Shown piece by piece: positions 16,964 to 47,687 of a stretch of DNA of 55,357 bases (position 1 is its first letter; every line of letters starts with the position of its first letter). Made by a program: the position numbers and the translations under genes. Under the pieces are notes generated by a model. The model did not search any database and had not been told where the DNA came from. It was given only the letters and a program-made list of their open reading frames with translations. This DNA is from a virus (taxonomy: Duplodnaviria > Caudoviricetes), in IMG/VR virus record IMGVR_UViG_3300030110_000758, positions 1-55,357 of that record; one strand, 5' to 3'.

Positions 16964-17236
16964 TTAACTTGTAAAGTTATCAGCAGAAGTTATAGCTGCA
17001 TCAATAACTGTAAAGTCTTTATCTCCCCAATCAGAGTATGTGTCTTTCTGGTATTTGAGATAACCTACACTACGACTTACACGTTCTTTCTTTTCATCGT
17101 GTGTTAAGTCGTATGCAAAGTCTGCTGATGTAGCATCACTGCCCATATTGTGTGTTGCAATTACAGATTTAATTGTATCTGCACCATCATGGCAAGCCTT
17201 GTATGCTTGTTCCATTACTGCTGTTTCTCTAGTCAT
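16964..17236 (-). CDS. Hypothetical protein, tail-fibre module
   Basis: 90-aa ORF overlapping the upstream oxygenase. Confidence 0.7.
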   Translation of the reverse strand: MTRETAVMEQAYKACHDGADTIKSVIATHNMGSDATSADFAYDLTHDEKKERVSRSVGYLKYQKDTYSDWGDKDFTVIDAAITSADNFTS

Positions 17237-17873
17237 TTTTCATTTTTCCTATATTAATATTACCAGATATTGATATTCTTTCACCGTCATCATTGTAAAA
17301 CGGAAAGACCTGATGAAGTAAGCACGAAGGAAACATAACCATATACCCTTCTGCCTGTTTCTCCATATTGTATGCAAAGGTTGACACCCTGCCTAACGTA
17401 TTTGTGTAGCTAAATGCAAAGTTGCTTATGTGGTTGTCTGCATTTGACTCTGCACAAATAGGTAGCTTGCGTTGTTCTTCATAGGACGTAGGTATCTGCA
17501 TCCATATTACAAAGCTATACACACCTGCATGATCATGTGGTGGGTTAAACTCGTTTTGCTTTTGAAAGTTTACCCAGAGGCTTTCTAAGTTAAATGTCTC
17601 ACCTTCTTTCATGGTCAGTCGATAAGGTGACCCATACTCTTGCATGTGTCTCTTTATACAAGCTGGTAGCACCTCACCTACAAAGTCAGTCATTAAGTCA
17701 GAGTTATTATCTAACCTAATAGAAGAACTGATGTTACCTGCTAGTTCAGGCTTCATATCTTCTGGCTTTTCTCTTGCTTCGTTTATTAATGTCCACAAGT
17801 CATCAACTATTTCTTCTGATAGTTTTCCCTCTACCACCCCAATGTTAGGGAAGTTTCTTGCTAGTAGTTCCAT
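17229..17873 (-). CDS. Putative 2OG-Fe(II) oxygenase
   Basis: WVNFQ..NPPHDH..SFVIW..MFPSCLLHQVFPF..RISISGN (HxH, distal H, RxS). Confidence 0.85.
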   Translation of the reverse strand: MELLARNFPNIGVVEGKLSEEIVDDLWTLINEAREKPEDMKPELAGNISSSIRLDNNSDLMTDFVGEVLPACIKRHMQEYGSPYRLTMKEGETFNLESLWVNFQKQNEFNPPHDHAGVYSFVIWMQIPTSYEEQRKLPICAESNADNHISNFAFSYTNTLGRVSTFAYNMEKQAEGYMVMFPSCLLHQVFPFYNDDGERISISGNINIGKMKND

Positions 17874-41980: not shown

Positions 41981-42907
41981 ATGAATGTACTATCACTATT
42001 TGACGGTATGTCATGTGGACAGCTTGCCCTTGAAAGGGCAGGCATCCCAGTAGATAATTATTTCGCAGCGGAGATTGACAAGTATGCAATCAAGGTAGCT
42101 ACAGCTAATTTTCCTGGTACTATTCAGCTTGGTGATGTTACTGCTATAGATCCAGACAAGCTACCCAATATAGATCTACTTATTGGTGGCTCACCGTGTC
42201 AGGGCTTTAGTTTTGCTGGTAAGCAACTTAACTTTGACGATCCACGTAGCAAGTTATTCTGGGAATATGTGCGGCTACTCAAGGCACTCAAGCCTAAGTA
42301 CTTCTTGCTAGAGAACGTGCGTATGAAACAAGAAAGCATGGACGTTATCACAAAAGCGCTGGGCGTAGAGCCTATCTTTATCAATAGCAGTCGTGTCTCT
42401 GCACAAAACAGACAGAGGTATTACTGGACAAATATACCTATGTATGCCTTCCCAGAAGATAAAGGTATTGTATTGTCTGACATACTAGAAAATGGACATG
42501 TTGACCGTGACAAATCACACTGCATTGATGCTAATTACTTCAAGGGCGGCAACCTAAAATCATACTTTGAGAAGCACCGTAGACAGCTAGTGTTTAGTAA
42601 GGATGGCATGTGTCATGTAGGTGACGCAGGTATCAGTGACAAGTATGCATATGTCAACCGTGTGTATCATCCATCAGGTAAAGGCCCATCACTTGTAGCG
42701 TCAGATGGTGGACACCTACAACCTAAAGTATCTAAAGGTACTACTGAGTACAGGAAGCTGACACCTCTAGAGTGTGAGCGTTTACAGACAGTACCTGATG
42801 GCTACACCGACCACGTATCTAATACGCAGCGGTACAAAATGCTTGGCAATGGATGGACAGTTGACGTAGTGTCACATATATTTGGAGGACTAACACAATG
42901 CACATAG
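41981..42907 (+). CDS. DNA cytosine-5 methyltransferase (orphan)
   Basis: LSLFDG, GSPCQGFS, LENV, QNRQR, LTPLECERLQ, LGNGW. Confidence 0.93.
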   Translation: MNVLSLFDGMSCGQLALERAGIPVDNYFAAEIDKYAIKVATANFPGTIQLGDVTAIDPDKLPNIDLLIGGSPCQGFSFAGKQLNFDDPRSKLFWEYVRLLKALKPKYFLLENVRMKQESMDVITKALGVEPIFINSSRVSAQNRQRYYWTNIPMYAFPEDKGIVLSDILENGHVDRDKSHCIDANYFKGGNLKSYFEKHRRQLVFSKDGMCHVGDAGISDKYAYVNRVYHPSGKGPSLVASDGGHLQPKVSKGTTEYRKLTPLECERLQTVPDGYTDHVSNTQRYKMLGNGWTVDVVSHIFGGLTQCT

Positions 42908-44199: not shown

Positions 44200-44409
44200 A
44201 TGGCCTTGTATATTAAAAGAGTTCTTATCGCCTTCTCAGTATTAGTTAACGTAATACTTGGTGGCACGAACAATCAAACGTTTAGCGCTAGGAATTGGCA
44301 ATGGAAAAGAGAGCATAAGCCTAACTTGGTTTGGCTGCTTGATTTAGTTATAGGGAAAGGACACTGTTCAGAATGTTGGGTTTACTGGAAGACACGCAGG
44401 AGATGGTAA
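44200..44409 (+). CDS. Hypothetical protein
   Basis: NVILGG..QTFSAR..GHC; GAGG SD. Confidence 0.75.
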   Translation: MALYIKRVLIAFSVLVNVILGGTNNQTFSARNWQWKREHKPNLVWLLDLVIGKGHCSECWVYWKTRRRW

Positions 44410-45293
44410 AAGCTAAGACAGTACAACAGCTAGTGTATGCATACTTAAAATCAGATGCGTTCCGCAAGCTAGGCAGAGCATCGAAGATAGACTACTCTGA
44501 TTGCTTAAATATAATAGAAGATGAATTAGGACATATCAGTATCAAATCAGGTTTGACTGTACCTACCATGCAGAAACACTACAACATTTGGCTAGAACGT
44601 GGAGTGCATCGTGCAAACAAGATAGCTGCGATCATGTCTATACTTATTAATTGGTCTACGAAGAATAACTTACGTGTCTTCAACCCTATGAAGTACCTAG
44701 ACAAGACACCTAACCCTGCACGTAAAGTTATATGGGAGCCAAGCCAGGTTAAGATATTCTTGGATACAGCGTACAGCCAGTGGAAGTGGAGATCCGTAGG
44801 CTTGATTGTGCAGATGGCTTACGAGTGGGGTCAGCGTGTAGGTGATATGCGTATGCTGTTGTGGAACGCTATAGATTTAGACAAAGGACGCTGTGATTTC
44901 GAGCAAAGCAAACGAGGTGAGGCAGTGCATTTGCCTATCAGTGATGGCTTGATGCACGTACTGAGACAGCAACACGAAACGTTTAGCTTTCAAGTATTGG
45001 TAGCACCACAGATACAGCCTAGTGATGGAGCGTACAAGCCGTACACTAAGGAGGGTCTTCACGTACACGTCAATGCAATACTCAAGGAAGCTGGACTACC
45101 AAGCCACCTGACAGCTATGGATATGCGCCGTACAGCTATCACTGAGATGGTTGAAGCTGGTGTAGATATAACACAGATCAAACAAGTTAGTGGACACACT
45201 AGCATAAATAGCTTGACTCCGTATATCAAACACACGTATACTGGAGCATCAGAAGCATTAGCCCAGCGCAATGCGTACAAGGATAAAGAGTGA
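44403..45293 (+). CDS. int: Tyrosine recombinase / integrase
   Basis: GQRVGD (R), QSKRG (K), MDMRRT (HxxR variant), SGH, PY; AGGAG SD at ATG 44403. Confidence 0.85.
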   Translation: MVKAKTVQQLVYAYLKSDAFRKLGRASKIDYSDCLNIIEDELGHISIKSGLTVPTMQKHYNIWLERGVHRANKIAAIMSILINWSTKNNLRVFNPMKYLDKTPNPARKVIWEPSQVKIFLDTAYSQWKWRSVGLIVQMAYEWGQRVGDMRMLLWNAIDLDKGRCDFEQSKRGEAVHLPISDGLMHVLRQQHETFSFQVLVAPQIQPSDGAYKPYTKEGLHVHVNAILKEAGLPSHLTAMDMRRTAITEMVEAGVDITQIKQVSGHTSINSLTPYIKHTYTGASEALAQRNAYKDKE

Positions 45294-45925
45294 TGAAATC
45301 TTGTAAAACATGCGGTAAAGATACTGATGAATTATATAAACATCATATAATCCCTATAGCTAATGGAGGTAAAGACAAAAAAGAAAACATTATAGATATA
45401 TGTGTAGATTGTCATAGCATAGCACATGATGTAAGTTTTAAAAGTTCTAAAGGTCCAATTAGAAATGGAATTAAAAAAACAAAAGATGCACATGCTTACT
45501 TCTGTAATCTTGACGATAATTTTTGGTTAGGTTTTTTTGATGATTTAAATTTTGAAAATAACTATCTATATTGTTTTATATGGGGAGGTTTTATGTGTGG
45601 TGAAATATCTGGATCAGATTTGATACGTATGTTAGAAGATAATTTTAAAAAAAGAAAGAACATAATAAACATAAGTGATAAAACCATAAGAGACATTAAA
45701 AGTATATATGAATATCGTAAAGAAGTAGATGCATTTAAAGATAAATTAAAGCAGGAAAAATCTAAAGAAAACTACCCGTCAAATAGAGTATCTAAAGTAG
45801 ACAATAAAAAAATTAAAGAGTTGCTAGATCAGGGTCTAAACAAAGCAGAGGTAGCAAGAACTCTTAACATAAGTAGGATGACGGTTTATAGAGCAATTAA
45901 TATTAAGGATAACAGTGATGGATAA
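45290..45925 (+). CDS. HNH endonuclease with C-terminal resolvase-type HTH
   Basis: CxxC..HHIIP..GG..N..CxxCH; C-terminal GLNKAEVARTLNISRMTVYRA; visibly AT-rich. Confidence 0.8.
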   Translation: MMKSCKTCGKDTDELYKHHIIPIANGGKDKKENIIDICVDCHSIAHDVSFKSSKGPIRNGIKKTKDAHAYFCNLDDNFWLGFFDDLNFENNYLYCFIWGGFMCGEISGSDLIRMLEDNFKKRKNIINISDKTIRDIKSIYEYRKEVDAFKDKLKQEKSKENYPSNRVSKVDNKKIKELLDQGLNKAEVARTLNISRMTVYRAINIKDNSDG

Positions 45926-46733
45926 TTACATAGAGGAAACACTGGATTTAACTGAGGGTGAATCCATACGCAAGGCTTGTCCTAAATGTGGCAGCAAAAA
46001 CACCTTCACTGCACGTAAAGTTGACGGTAGGATTATCTACAACTGTTACAAATTATCGTGCGATCTCAAAGGCATGGTGTCCACAGCTATGACTATGGAA
46101 GAAATGCAGTCTTACTTTAAGAAGCCCCTAATAGAATCACATAATGATAACAACGAGTTAACTACCTTTGTTTATCCAGAACATGTAGTTGATGGTAGCA
46201 CTGTGCAAAACGGACAGATGCGTAGATTTATTATGCGCTGGCCTATACTTAAACATGAGAACTTAATGTATGACGTTAAAAGTAAACGTGTAGTTTTTCC
46301 TATCTATAACGATGGTAGATTGATAGATGCCATAGGCCGTGCATTAGATGGAGCTATACCAAAGTGGTACAGATACGGTGGTATTGGAAGCTTCTACAAA
46401 AGATGTATAGGTAAACCCAACGGTGTATATGTCATAGTCGAAGATGTTATTAGTGCTATCACTGTAGCTAAACGTATGCCAGGAACGACAGGCTTTGCCA
46501 TACTTGGTACTAGCTTGACAGACGATCACCTAGCTGATATAAGTGATAATGCGTCAAGCTGTTTAGTTGCACTTGATCCTGACGCACTAAGTAAAAGTAT
46601 GGAGTTCAGTAAGAAGATACAACTCTGGACTGATTTACCTGCTTGGGTGTTACACGTTGAGGATGACATCAAGTATGAACGTGTGAAAGATATAACTAAT
46701 TTAAGGATTCTGATAGATGGAGCGATTGAATAA
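45918..46733 (+). CDS. DNA primase (Zn finger + TOPRIM)
   Basis: CPKC..CYKLSC, RVVFPI, IGR, PKWYRY, VEDVISA, LGT, LDPDA. Confidence 0.85.
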   Translation: MDNYIEETLDLTEGESIRKACPKCGSKNTFTARKVDGRIIYNCYKLSCDLKGMVSTAMTMEEMQSYFKKPLIESHNDNNELTTFVYPEHVVDGSTVQNGQMRRFIMRWPILKHENLMYDVKSKRVVFPIYNDGRLIDAIGRALDGAIPKWYRYGGIGSFYKRCIGKPNGVYVIVEDVISAITVAKRMPGTTGFAILGTSLTDDHLADISDNASSCLVALDPDALSKSMEFSKKIQLWTDLPAWVLHVEDDIKYERVKDITNLRILIDGAIE

Positions 46734-46863
46734 ACAGAACCCTATGGCTAAAGATTTGCGGCAACCTAAGTATAAGCAGCGAGTTATACCTGATAAGAAG
46801 AAACCTAAACCAGTACGGAAAGAGAAACATAAAGGAGATATACATGCTTACAGAGACAGTTAA
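46717..46863 (+). CDS. ArfA-like basic peptide, 48 aa (not in ORF track)
   Basis: AAGGA SD; NPMAKDLRQPKYKQRVIPDKKKPKPVRKEKH aligns to E. coli ArfA [32 protein letters not shown]. Confidence 0.7.
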   Translation: MERLNKQNPMAKDLRQPKYKQRVIPDKKKPKPVRKEKHKGDIHAYRDS

Positions 46864-47266
46864 TCCAAAGACAGGTAAAAATAGATATTACAAAGACAAT
46901 CCAGAGCATAAGAAAATGTATCAAAGGATTTACTACTGGAAGAATAAAGCTATTAAAAGAATAAATGAATCTCAATTAGACAACGTAAAGAACGGTTACG
47001 TTTATGCAGTGGGTCATCCTAAATTTGATGGTATAAAAATAGGCAGGACACATAACATAGAACAAAGATTGTCTCAACTTAATACAGGTTGTCCTGGTAG
47101 ATTATACTATGTAGTTTATAAAGTGTATCAAGATGATTGTCACGAGGCAGAAAGAAAGGCACACGAATTAGCTAACAACTATGGGGATATATTAAAAGGT
47201 GAGTGGTTTAAGATAACAGAAGAGCAAGCATTAGAAGTATTACAGGAGTTGACACTTGATAACTAA
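46844..47266 (+). CDS. GIY-YIG (T5orf172-type) nuclease domain protein
   Basis: GYVYA..IKIGRT..RLSQLNTG..EAERKAH..GEWF. Confidence 0.85.
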   Translation: MLTETVNPKTGKNRYYKDNPEHKKMYQRIYYWKNKAIKRINESQLDNVKNGYVYAVGHPKFDGIKIGRTHNIEQRLSQLNTGCPGRLYYVVYKVYQDDCHEAERKAHELANNYGDILKGEWFKITEEQALEVLQELTLDN

Positions 47267-47687
47267 GATATTAAATAGGCTACCTGAGTTCTGTTTTAGT
47301 CACTGGCTTTTACGTATACCTTTGTCTATTGTGTTTATACAACAAGGCTTATCTAAACTACCTATTAATATAGAAGATGCTGATTCATTTGGTCTACCTT
47401 ACATCGTTTGGTGGTTCGCTGCGTATGGTGAAATAGGTGCAGGTATAGGGTTAATAGTTAGTGGTATCATAGGGTCAAGCATATGGGATTTTTGGATTAG
47501 AGATATGATGCACCATTGGTCAGATTTACTTACACGTTTCTGTGGTATTACTATTTGTTGTATTATGACAGGAGTGATATGGGTAGGTGAACCCGATAGT
47601 TTAATGGATGTTTTACTATATGATAACTTACATGTTTTTCTTTGGGTAGGTGGTTTATTCTTTGCTTTGAGGGGTAAGCGAGCATGA
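47256..47687 (+). CDS. DoxX family membrane protein
   Basis: WLLRIPLSIVFIQQGLSK..GEIGAGIGL; four TM; TTG start with AGGAG SD. Confidence 0.75.
   Translation: MITKILNRLPEFCFSHWLLRIPLSIVFIQQGLSKLPINIEDADSFGLPYIVWWFAAYGEIGAGIGLIVSGIIGSSIWDFWIRDMMHHWSDLLTRFCGITICCIMTGVIWVGEPDSLMDVLLYDNLHVFLWVGGLFFALRGKRA

Follow-up and report, generated by a model that had tools for sequence, protein, structure and literature searches.

The question raised by this locus is whether a small basic peptide, encoded directly behind a viral DNA primase gene, is a form of the ribosome rescue factor ArfA, and what it would do for the phage if it were one. The locus lies in the IMG/VR record IMGVR_UViG_3300030110_000758, a complete virus record of 55,357 bp, which was analysed over its whole length and is called the window here. 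An earlier, sequence-only reading had picked out the open reading frame (ORF) 46717..46863 on the plus strand, behind the primase and closed by a normal stop, as an ArfA-like gene, and its translation is reproduced identically, with 48 amino acid residues and a TAA stop. It was also right, by alignment and by reading of the ORF, that the KGKGS motif of ArfA is replaced, that A18 of ArfA is lost (K12 in the peptide) and that there is no hydrophobic C-terminal tail. As judged from iterated profile comparisons, the peptide is remotely homologous to ArfA and belongs to the branch of the Pfam family DUF7230.

The gene is found in many viruses. A word-indexed search retrieved 79 homologs of the peptide with 26–84 amino acids, and at least 479 viral contigs in IMG/VR encode a relative. 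In the alignment of the close homologs, which was also used as a profile (A1), the core reads NPMAKDLRQPKYKQ[QR]VIPDKKKPKP-x-RKEKHKG; A11, K18, Y19, K27-K29 and R34 are invariant in it and P17 nearly so, and across the family P17 and Y19 are 90–100% conserved. Translation starts upstream of the internal M10, since N8-P9 are kept in the relatives. Comparison of 53 distinct relatives, which are phylogenetically non-independent, gave 483 synonymous against 169 non-synonymous codon differences and 110, 110 and 584 substitutions at codon positions 1, 2 and 3, respectively; the peptide gene is under purifying selection. The surroundings were compared in the best 80 related viral loci, where the primase stands directly upstream of the peptide in 61 and where identity is 73–100% for the peptide and only 44–96% for the adjacent primase. 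A frame of just 48 codons that overlaps both neighbours could arise by chance in the overlap of a primase gene and a homing-endonuclease gene, but this is refuted by the spread of the relatives over viral contigs, by the excess of third-position changes and by a conservation above that of the primase. Moreover, the gene has a Shine-Dalgarno-like site of its own, and we give the chance frame next to no probability. An antisense ORF at 46696..46845 was also considered, and it is not the conserved frame.

The relationship with ArfA appears when the profiles are iterated. Over 1.84 billion representatives, the A1 profile matched 291 proteins (clusters at 50% identity) at E<=1e-3, and 133 of these matches were built into a second-round family profile (A2), which finds only one family copy in the window, the peptide itself (73 bits). 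Against 177,635 distinct PDB sequences at E<=10, all six matches of A2 are ArfA, with a best E of 3e-5. After removal of the seven KGKGS-like rows from A2, E. coli ArfA still scored 25.2 bits (E 1.4e-4 at PDB size); none of 2000 ArfA shuffles came above 10 bits, and reversed ArfA scored 0.9 bits. In addition, hhalign of A2 with an alignment of 32 enterobacterial ArfAs (A3, for which the homolog search with E. coli ArfA returned close enterobacterial sequences only) gave a probability of 81.8% and an E of 1.1e-5. Four proteins found by A1 with E of 3e-6 to 4e-5 (P0255, P0279, P0298 and P0300) carry KGKGS[YW] and pass the gathering score of the Pfam ArfA family PF03889, with 31.1–41.5 bits against 25.5. 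Pairwise BLASTP aligns the peptide and E. coli ArfA (NC_000913) with a single gap at E 7e-5 (14/34 identities), which reproduces residue for residue the alignment of the earlier reading. In the ESM Atlas the DUF7230 clusters come out on top (0.95) and an ArfA cluster is at rank 22 (0.90), which is a lead only. Sorting of the tail types among 150 family representatives by regular expressions was crude (101 were classed as 'other') and only two counts were used from it, namely KH in 85/150 and KGKGS-type in 5/150. One match of A1 was set aside: P0221, a metagenomic protein of 645 amino acids with about 10 copies of a 61-residue repeat, is matched in nine stretches (E 2.6e-9) via 'DVRNPGYR' and is probably unrelated.

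The direct tests weigh against an assignment to ArfA. PF03889 (gathering cut-off 25.5 bits) has no match to the peptide at E<=10 and matches 0/80 of the close homologs, a six-frame scan of the whole record for PF03889 gave no candidate, and the NCBIfam scan of the peptide was empty. No ArfA was found in the PDB by phmmer with the peptide or by hmmsearch with A1, and hhalign of A1 with E. coli ArfA or with the ArfA alignment gave a probability of 3%. With a hidden Markov model of the 32 enterobacterial ArfAs the peptide scored 7.9 bits and the reversed peptide 6.8, and 1 of about 2000 shuffles reached 7.9. The sole Pfam match is DUF7230 (PF23876), at 22 bits and an E of 1.8e-4, below the gathering cut-off of 27 bits; it spans residues 5–41 of the peptide and positions 2–35 of the 42 in the model. 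The same model matches 69/80 close homologs at E<=10, many homologs have a precomputed PF23876 label, and the peptide can be placed as a borderline member at the periphery of DUF7230. This family is thus its best curated match and heads its ESM Atlas clusters, but has no assigned function; the literature search found no paper that mentions DUF7230 or PF23876, nor an experiment on any member of the family. The tblastn search of phages with the peptide gave four weak partial matches only, as the lysine-rich half is probably hidden by the low-complexity filter; this also happened when a Pelagibacteraceae peptide was the query. The earlier description of the peptide as ArfA-like therefore stands as a remote homology, because the iterated profile tests succeed (A2 in the PDB and against A3, and the four members that pass PF03889) though the direct tests with PF03889, NCBIfam and A1 fail, and the profile check named in that reading came out in the same divided way. 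On the combined comparisons, the gene is established as real, conserved and homologous to ArfA.

How much of the working part of ArfA is retained can be judged from the known structures. Residues 14–29 of ArfA lie in the A site and the decoding centre and include a beta-strand that pairs with release factor 2 (RF2), residues 21–30 being placed in the A site and 31–48 in the empty mRNA channel (PMC5378476, PMC6299226). P23 packs on A1492 and A1493, the region round F25 forms an extra strand on the beta-4/beta-5 sheet of RF2 with F25 in the V198/F217 pocket, L19, L24 and F25 bind W319 of the RF2 switch loop, and A18 is in the core of the N-terminal minidomain (PMC5378476, PMC6299226). The aligned pairs (ArfA/peptide) are N14/N8, L20/L14, P23/P17, F25/Y19, R26/K20, Q27/Q21, R28/R22 and V29/V23, followed by K33-K34/K27-K28 and R41-K-x-K-H45/R34-K-E-K-H38. 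The core of A-site and RF2 contacts (P23, the aromatic F25 and the R26-Q27-R28-V29 strand) is thus matched by P17, Y19, K20, Q21, R22 and V23, and K27-K29, R34-K35 and K37-H38 are functional positions that are kept as well. The tail of the peptide is basic (K27-29, K31, R34, K35, K37, H38 and K39), includes KH and extends to the equivalent of ArfA residue ~47, which is about where the shortest active truncation reported in PMC5378476 ends. The KH motif makes conserved channel contacts (PMC8012679), and according to PMC6299226 no single residue of the ArfA tail is essential. Overall, E. coli ArfA (YhdL; PF03889; PDB 5H5U, 5MDV and 5U4I, among others) and the peptide are both small, have a C-terminal half of basic character and share an N-x-x-x-x-x-L-x-x-P-x-[FY]-[RK]-Q-R-V core together with K-K and R-K-x-K-H, whereas KGKGS, A18/L19/L24, the longer N-terminus, the hydrophobic tail, the regulation via non-stop mRNA and recognition by PF03889 belong to E. 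coli ArfA only, and the peptide is phage-borne. ArfT of Francisella and BrfA of Bacillus are likewise short release-factor-dependent rescue factors, whose basic tail presumably binds in the vacant mRNA channel; BrfA also has the KH motif (PMC8012679), while ArfT is described as having no hydrophobic residue at the F25 position and using RF1 or RF2 (PMC6299226), unlike the peptide, which keeps Y19. A sequence relationship of either factor with the peptide was not seen, though no search was aimed at it.

We consider it fairly probable, from these sequence comparisons, that the peptide rescues non-stop ribosomes in a release-factor-dependent way. When a ribosome has stalled at the 3' end of a truncated message, the Lys/Arg-rich segment I24-G40 would thread into its empty mRNA channel, and N8-V23 would lie in the A site with P17 (P23 in ArfA) at the decoding-centre adenines. 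Y19-K-Q-R-V23, corresponding to F25-V29, would extend the beta-sheet of RF2 domain 2 by one strand and place its aromatic residue in the V198/F217 pocket; RF2 would be held open, the peptidyl-tRNA hydrolysed without a stop codon and the ribosome recycled. E. coli ArfA is made from a truncated non-stop mRNA (with an RNase III hairpin and a hydrophobic C-terminal extension) and is limited by repression that depends on transfer-messenger RNA (tmRNA). Such control is absent here, since the gene ends in a normal stop and encodes no hydrophobic tail, and neither a stable RNA structure (fold z-score 0.31) nor a match to an Rfam family is found. Without a regulatory hairpin and with an ordinary stop codon, the peptide would be made whenever the replication-module transcript is translated, outside the tmRNA-dependent repression. 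Promoter-like or terminator-like sites are not enriched around the gene, and one oligo-dT RNA-library run contained a 205-nt contig of a relative (19 differences, depth 2.7) over 46738–46902, which is too little to claim transcription, DNA carry-over being possible. The likely benefit is that ribosomes stay available while host and phage mRNAs are cut and degraded in infection. That the peptide binds the ribosome, which release factor it uses and what the phage gains are inferred from the likeness to ArfA.

Several features of the peptide itself speak against this mechanism. KGKGS has become KKKPKP, the alignment showing a gap plus K-P-K at GKGS; L19 and L24, two of the three hydrophobic-patch residues that bind W319 of RF2, correspond to D13 and K18; A18 pairs with K12, the invariant A11 being one position earlier; and the N-terminal minidomain is about six residues shorter than in ArfA. 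The hydrophobic minidomain that activates RF2 (I11, A18, L19 and L24) is thus not found in the peptide. In addition, ArfA-RF2 pairs are reported as species-specific (PMC8012679), relatives exist in which the N-terminal motif is joined to larger proteins, and in others it is followed by an acidic tail, which means that this motif can act in other settings. On the supporting side, W319, F217 and V/I198 are kept in RF2 of three alphaproteobacterial genomes with a relative, and RF1 there does not keep them; as these are general features of RF2, the point is only permissive. The predicted complex of the peptide with RF2_ROSDO scored 0.20 against a mark of 0.32 and carries no weight either way.

Since the changed residues are precisely those that activate RF2 (A18 to K12, L19 to D13 and L24 to K18), the peptide might instead be a mimic that binds the ribosome without activating the release factor. 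Its tail would plug the channel, perhaps with RF2 kept in the compact, inactive form as by the A18T variant of ArfA, and it would block the access of host ArfA, ArfB or tmRNA or shut down host translation. A precedent exists in this variant, which binds RF2 and does not support release, the activation of RF2 being lost (PMC5378476), and the proline-rich KKKPKP in place of KGKGS fits such a function, as it is seen in none of the cellular copies, that is, in 0/46 genome loci and 0/20 sampled alphaproteobacterial genomes with a match. However, the same K/D/K changes occur in chromosomal peptides of Pelagibacteraceae that have housekeeping genes as neighbours and probably do not act as inhibitors, and conservation in the N-terminal half equals or exceeds that in the tail, which a mere channel plug would not need. 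We regard the mimic as unlikely, and K12, D13 and K18 as typical of the lineage rather than as phage-specific disabling changes, because they are common to those chromosomal peptides.

These cellular relatives are encoded at 46 loci in bacterial genomes. Many are Pelagibacteraceae peptides of 35–40 amino acids with the pattern MKKKN-x-IAKDLR-x-PKY-x-x-R-[VI]-[VI]-K-x-KKGKGSFKRKKK, and two of 35 amino acids on Pelagibacteraceae contigs (L132:3001-3108 and L133:3001-3108) pass the ArfA cut-off with 28.1 and 31.0 bits, respectively. The two contigs share a neighbourhood with genes for a pfkB-family kinase, an HhH-GPD repair protein, dapB, YkuD and a response-regulator-like protein. Peptides of 35–40 amino acids with IAKDLR-x-PKY and KGKGSF were also seen, likewise in a syntenic housekeeping setting, at L117, L119 and L127-L130. 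The marine alphaproteobacterial peptides, those of Pelagibacteraceae included, resemble the window peptide in the IAKDLR-x-PKY-x-x-R-[VI] core (13/25 identities) and the minimal N-terminus, and differ from it in being cellular, in the syntenic housekeeping context, in KGKGSF and in a K/R-run end without KH. Among 401 evenly sampled alphaproteobacterial genomes 20 have a family match, and the copies in this class form a continuum from an E. coli-like 'PLFRQRV' to a marine 'PKYKQRV' ('DLRTPKYKQRV'). From these comparisons, the KKKPKP tail is what sets the phage form apart. The cellular copies sit oddly with the published distribution of ArfA: a survey of 15,259 genomes gives arfA in 0/2,376 Alphaproteobacteria (PMC11633108), and a review restricts ArfA to some beta- and gamma-proteobacteria (PMC8012679).

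The location of the gene bears on another possibility, namely that the peptide is a basic one unrelated to release factors, with a role in nucleic-acid binding or chaperoning in replication or a non-rescue role at the ribosome, and that its ArfA likeness reflects distant ancestry only. About 40% of its residues are basic, it lies in the replication module in translational coupling to the primase, the curated ArfA models miss it, and fused and acidic-tail relatives exist. On the other hand, the linkage to the primase is lost outside this phage group. In a second group of loci the peptide stands directly before thyX without a detectable primase homolog, and in other phages family members are found beside terS (HTVC027P) or inside the structural module (CRP-9 and CRP-212); as the position of the family varies between phage genomes, it counts against a role tied to the primase. 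Furthermore, the most conserved residues A11, P17, K18 and Y19 map to the region of ArfA that contacts the A site and RF2 and not to a generic basic tail, and the family profile matches ArfA alone among the PDB sequences, which include many basic nucleic-acid-binding proteins. A role apart from release factors is therefore improbable in our view, and release-factor-dependent rescue is the reading we prefer.

Phage-encoded ArfAs are not new, because some have already been annotated in print, and the newness implied by the sequence-only reading does not hold in this respect, the peptide family being already DUF7230 in Pfam. Gp30 of Pelagibacter phage HTVC027P, which carries NPVAKEVRTPKYKSQIIKPKKGRGSFKR and is hypothetical in GenBank, is presented in PMC12753301 as a phage ArfA with a PF03889 domain and with high expression at 3 and 12–15 h after infection; in our six-frame scan it scores 19.4 bits against PF03889, under the cut-off. 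Like the peptide, with which it shares 12/21 identities at a pairwise E of 3e-7, it has an NP-x-AK-[DE]-[LV]-R-x-PKYK motif, and its host is alphaproteobacterial, as that of the window phage probably is; but it keeps KGRGSF, lacks the R-K-E-K-H-K-G end, has a 25-residue N-terminal extension and adjoins the small terminase gene instead of the primase. Gene g10 of Citromicrobium phage RXM is also described as ArfA (PMC8953757). The tblastn search with E. coli ArfA matched 17 records of the phage collection, of which three are annotated as alternative ribosome-rescue factor, and the literature on ArfA and phages yielded annotation-level mentions only. Within the searches made, it appears to be new that an abundant DUF7230-type peptide belongs with ArfA, that a phage-specific KKKPKP variant exists, and that its closest relatives in cells are mini-ArfAs of marine Alphaproteobacteria that had gone unrecognised, all as judged from alignments and profiles.

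Further relatives were noticed in phage genomes. The Roseobacter phage CRP-212 (MZ892988.1, L002:2477-2614) has an unannotated ArfA-like ORF of 41–45 codons with KGKGSY that scores 29.8 bits against PF03889; the whole ORF falls within the acidic 3' end of gp38, is read in a different frame from it, and may represent either a frameshift product or a gene that overlaps gp38. In P0280, a metagenomic protein, a gp38-like protein continues in frame at its C-terminus into such a peptide. In the Roseobacter phage CRP-9 (MW514246.1, L003:2474-2629) the family is matched over its full length (E 3e-13) by an unannotated open frame of 51 codons that has no ATG upstream of the motif. In a different reading frame, it shares sequence with the 5' part of gp53, which precedes the coat protein gene; in P0242 the motif is fused in frame to a gp53-like protein. 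HMO-2011 (GU557055.1, L087:203-388), the type phage of its group, has an unannotated small ORF with a family match (E 1.6e-5) between phage1322_01 and _02 and no such gene after its primase, where CRP-2 has an unrelated ORF of 56 amino acids. Gp18 of Pelagibacter phage HTVC115P (L004:2492-2752) and P0252, P0292, P0305, P0310, P0313 and P0337 keep NP-x-AK-x-LR-x-PKYK, and instead of a basic tail they end in a long stretch of acidic character; the function of these proteins probably differs.

As to its source, the window helicase is 74% identical to those of Roseobacter phages CRP-2 and CRP-603 and 60% to that of Puniceispirillum phage HMO-2011, and the gene set is that of the HMO-2011 group (class II ribonucleotide reductase, family A DNA polymerase, DnaB, ThyX, endonuclease I, and an SU10-like portal and adaptor). 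This suggests an HMO-2011-type marine podovirus, whose host is probably a marine alphaproteobacterium, likely of the Rhodobacteraceae. The window holds no tRNA or tmRNA genes, and megablast of 45900–47300 against cultured phages gave no match. We put forward as a tentative and rather doubtful extension that the KKKPKP peptide may be a phage-only derivative of an unrecognised alphaproteobacterial mini-ArfA, which would be made constitutively and prevail over tmRNA-SmpB in the competition for non-stop ribosomes. Nascent phage chains would then leave the ribosome without a tag, and translation would withstand defences that cut mRNA or tRNA, so that the peptide would be an A-site counter-defence or takeover factor, widespread in abundant marine phages. 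If the peptide acts like ArfA, DUF7230, with its 291 clusters at 50% identity and at least 479 viral contigs, gains a testable function, and ArfA-type rescue would extend to marine Alphaproteobacteria, SAR11 included, and to their phages. It would also mean that abundant ocean phages invest in ribosome recycling as a step of host takeover, and the forms of 35–48 residues would be the smallest ArfA-like factors, useful to define the contacts needed for the opening of RF2.

Table 1. Positions in the window of the peptide gene, its parts and signals, and other genes mentioned in the text
Feature	Position	Strand	Evidence or remark
48-residue ArfA-like peptide gene (DUF7230-type)	46717..46863, stop included	+	ORF, translation, 79 homologs, purifying selection
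Shine-Dalgarno-like AAGGA	46703-46707	+	9 nt before ATG; read from sequence
Codons N8-V23 (NPMAKDLRQPKYKQRV)	46738..46785	+	aligns to ArfA residues 14-29
Codons I24-G40 (IPDKKKPKPVRKEKHKG), basic tail	46786..46836	+	aligns to ArfA residues 30-47; KKKPKP for KGKGS, KH kept
DNA primase gene	45915..46733	+	PHROG 47 DNA primase, E 6e-18; last 17 nt overlap peptide gene
T5orf172/MUG113 gene (GIY-YIG-type, homing-endonuclease-like)	46844..47266	+	PF13455 2e-16, PF10544 9e-15
Tyrosine-recombinase ('phage integrase') gene	44373-45293	+	in replication module
HNH endonuclease gene	45290-45925	+	C-terminal helix-turn-helix
DoxX-like membrane protein gene	47256-47687	+	
C-5 cytosine DNA methylase gene	41981-42907	+	
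2OG-Fe(II) oxygenase gene	17229-17873	-	

The T5orf172/MUG113 gene downstream begins within the last 20 nt of the peptide gene and has its own AAGGAG at 46832–46837. It is present in 52/80 of the related loci with 28–86% identity and at a varying distance, and probably represents a mobile element inserted right beside the conserved peptide gene. The summed depth of metagenome contigs on the region is highest over 46746–46839, and several contigs diverge just past 46833–46840, as would be expected of a conserved island with a variable insertion behind it. On the other side of the primase, the tyrosine-recombinase gene is kept in 54/80 related loci and also in HMO-2011 and CRP-2, and the HNH endonuclease gene between it and the primase probably is a mobile homing endonuclease, as it occurs in only 2/80 related loci. 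The window also encodes the DoxX-like membrane protein, the C-5 cytosine DNA methylase and the 2OG-Fe(II) oxygenase listed in Table 1.

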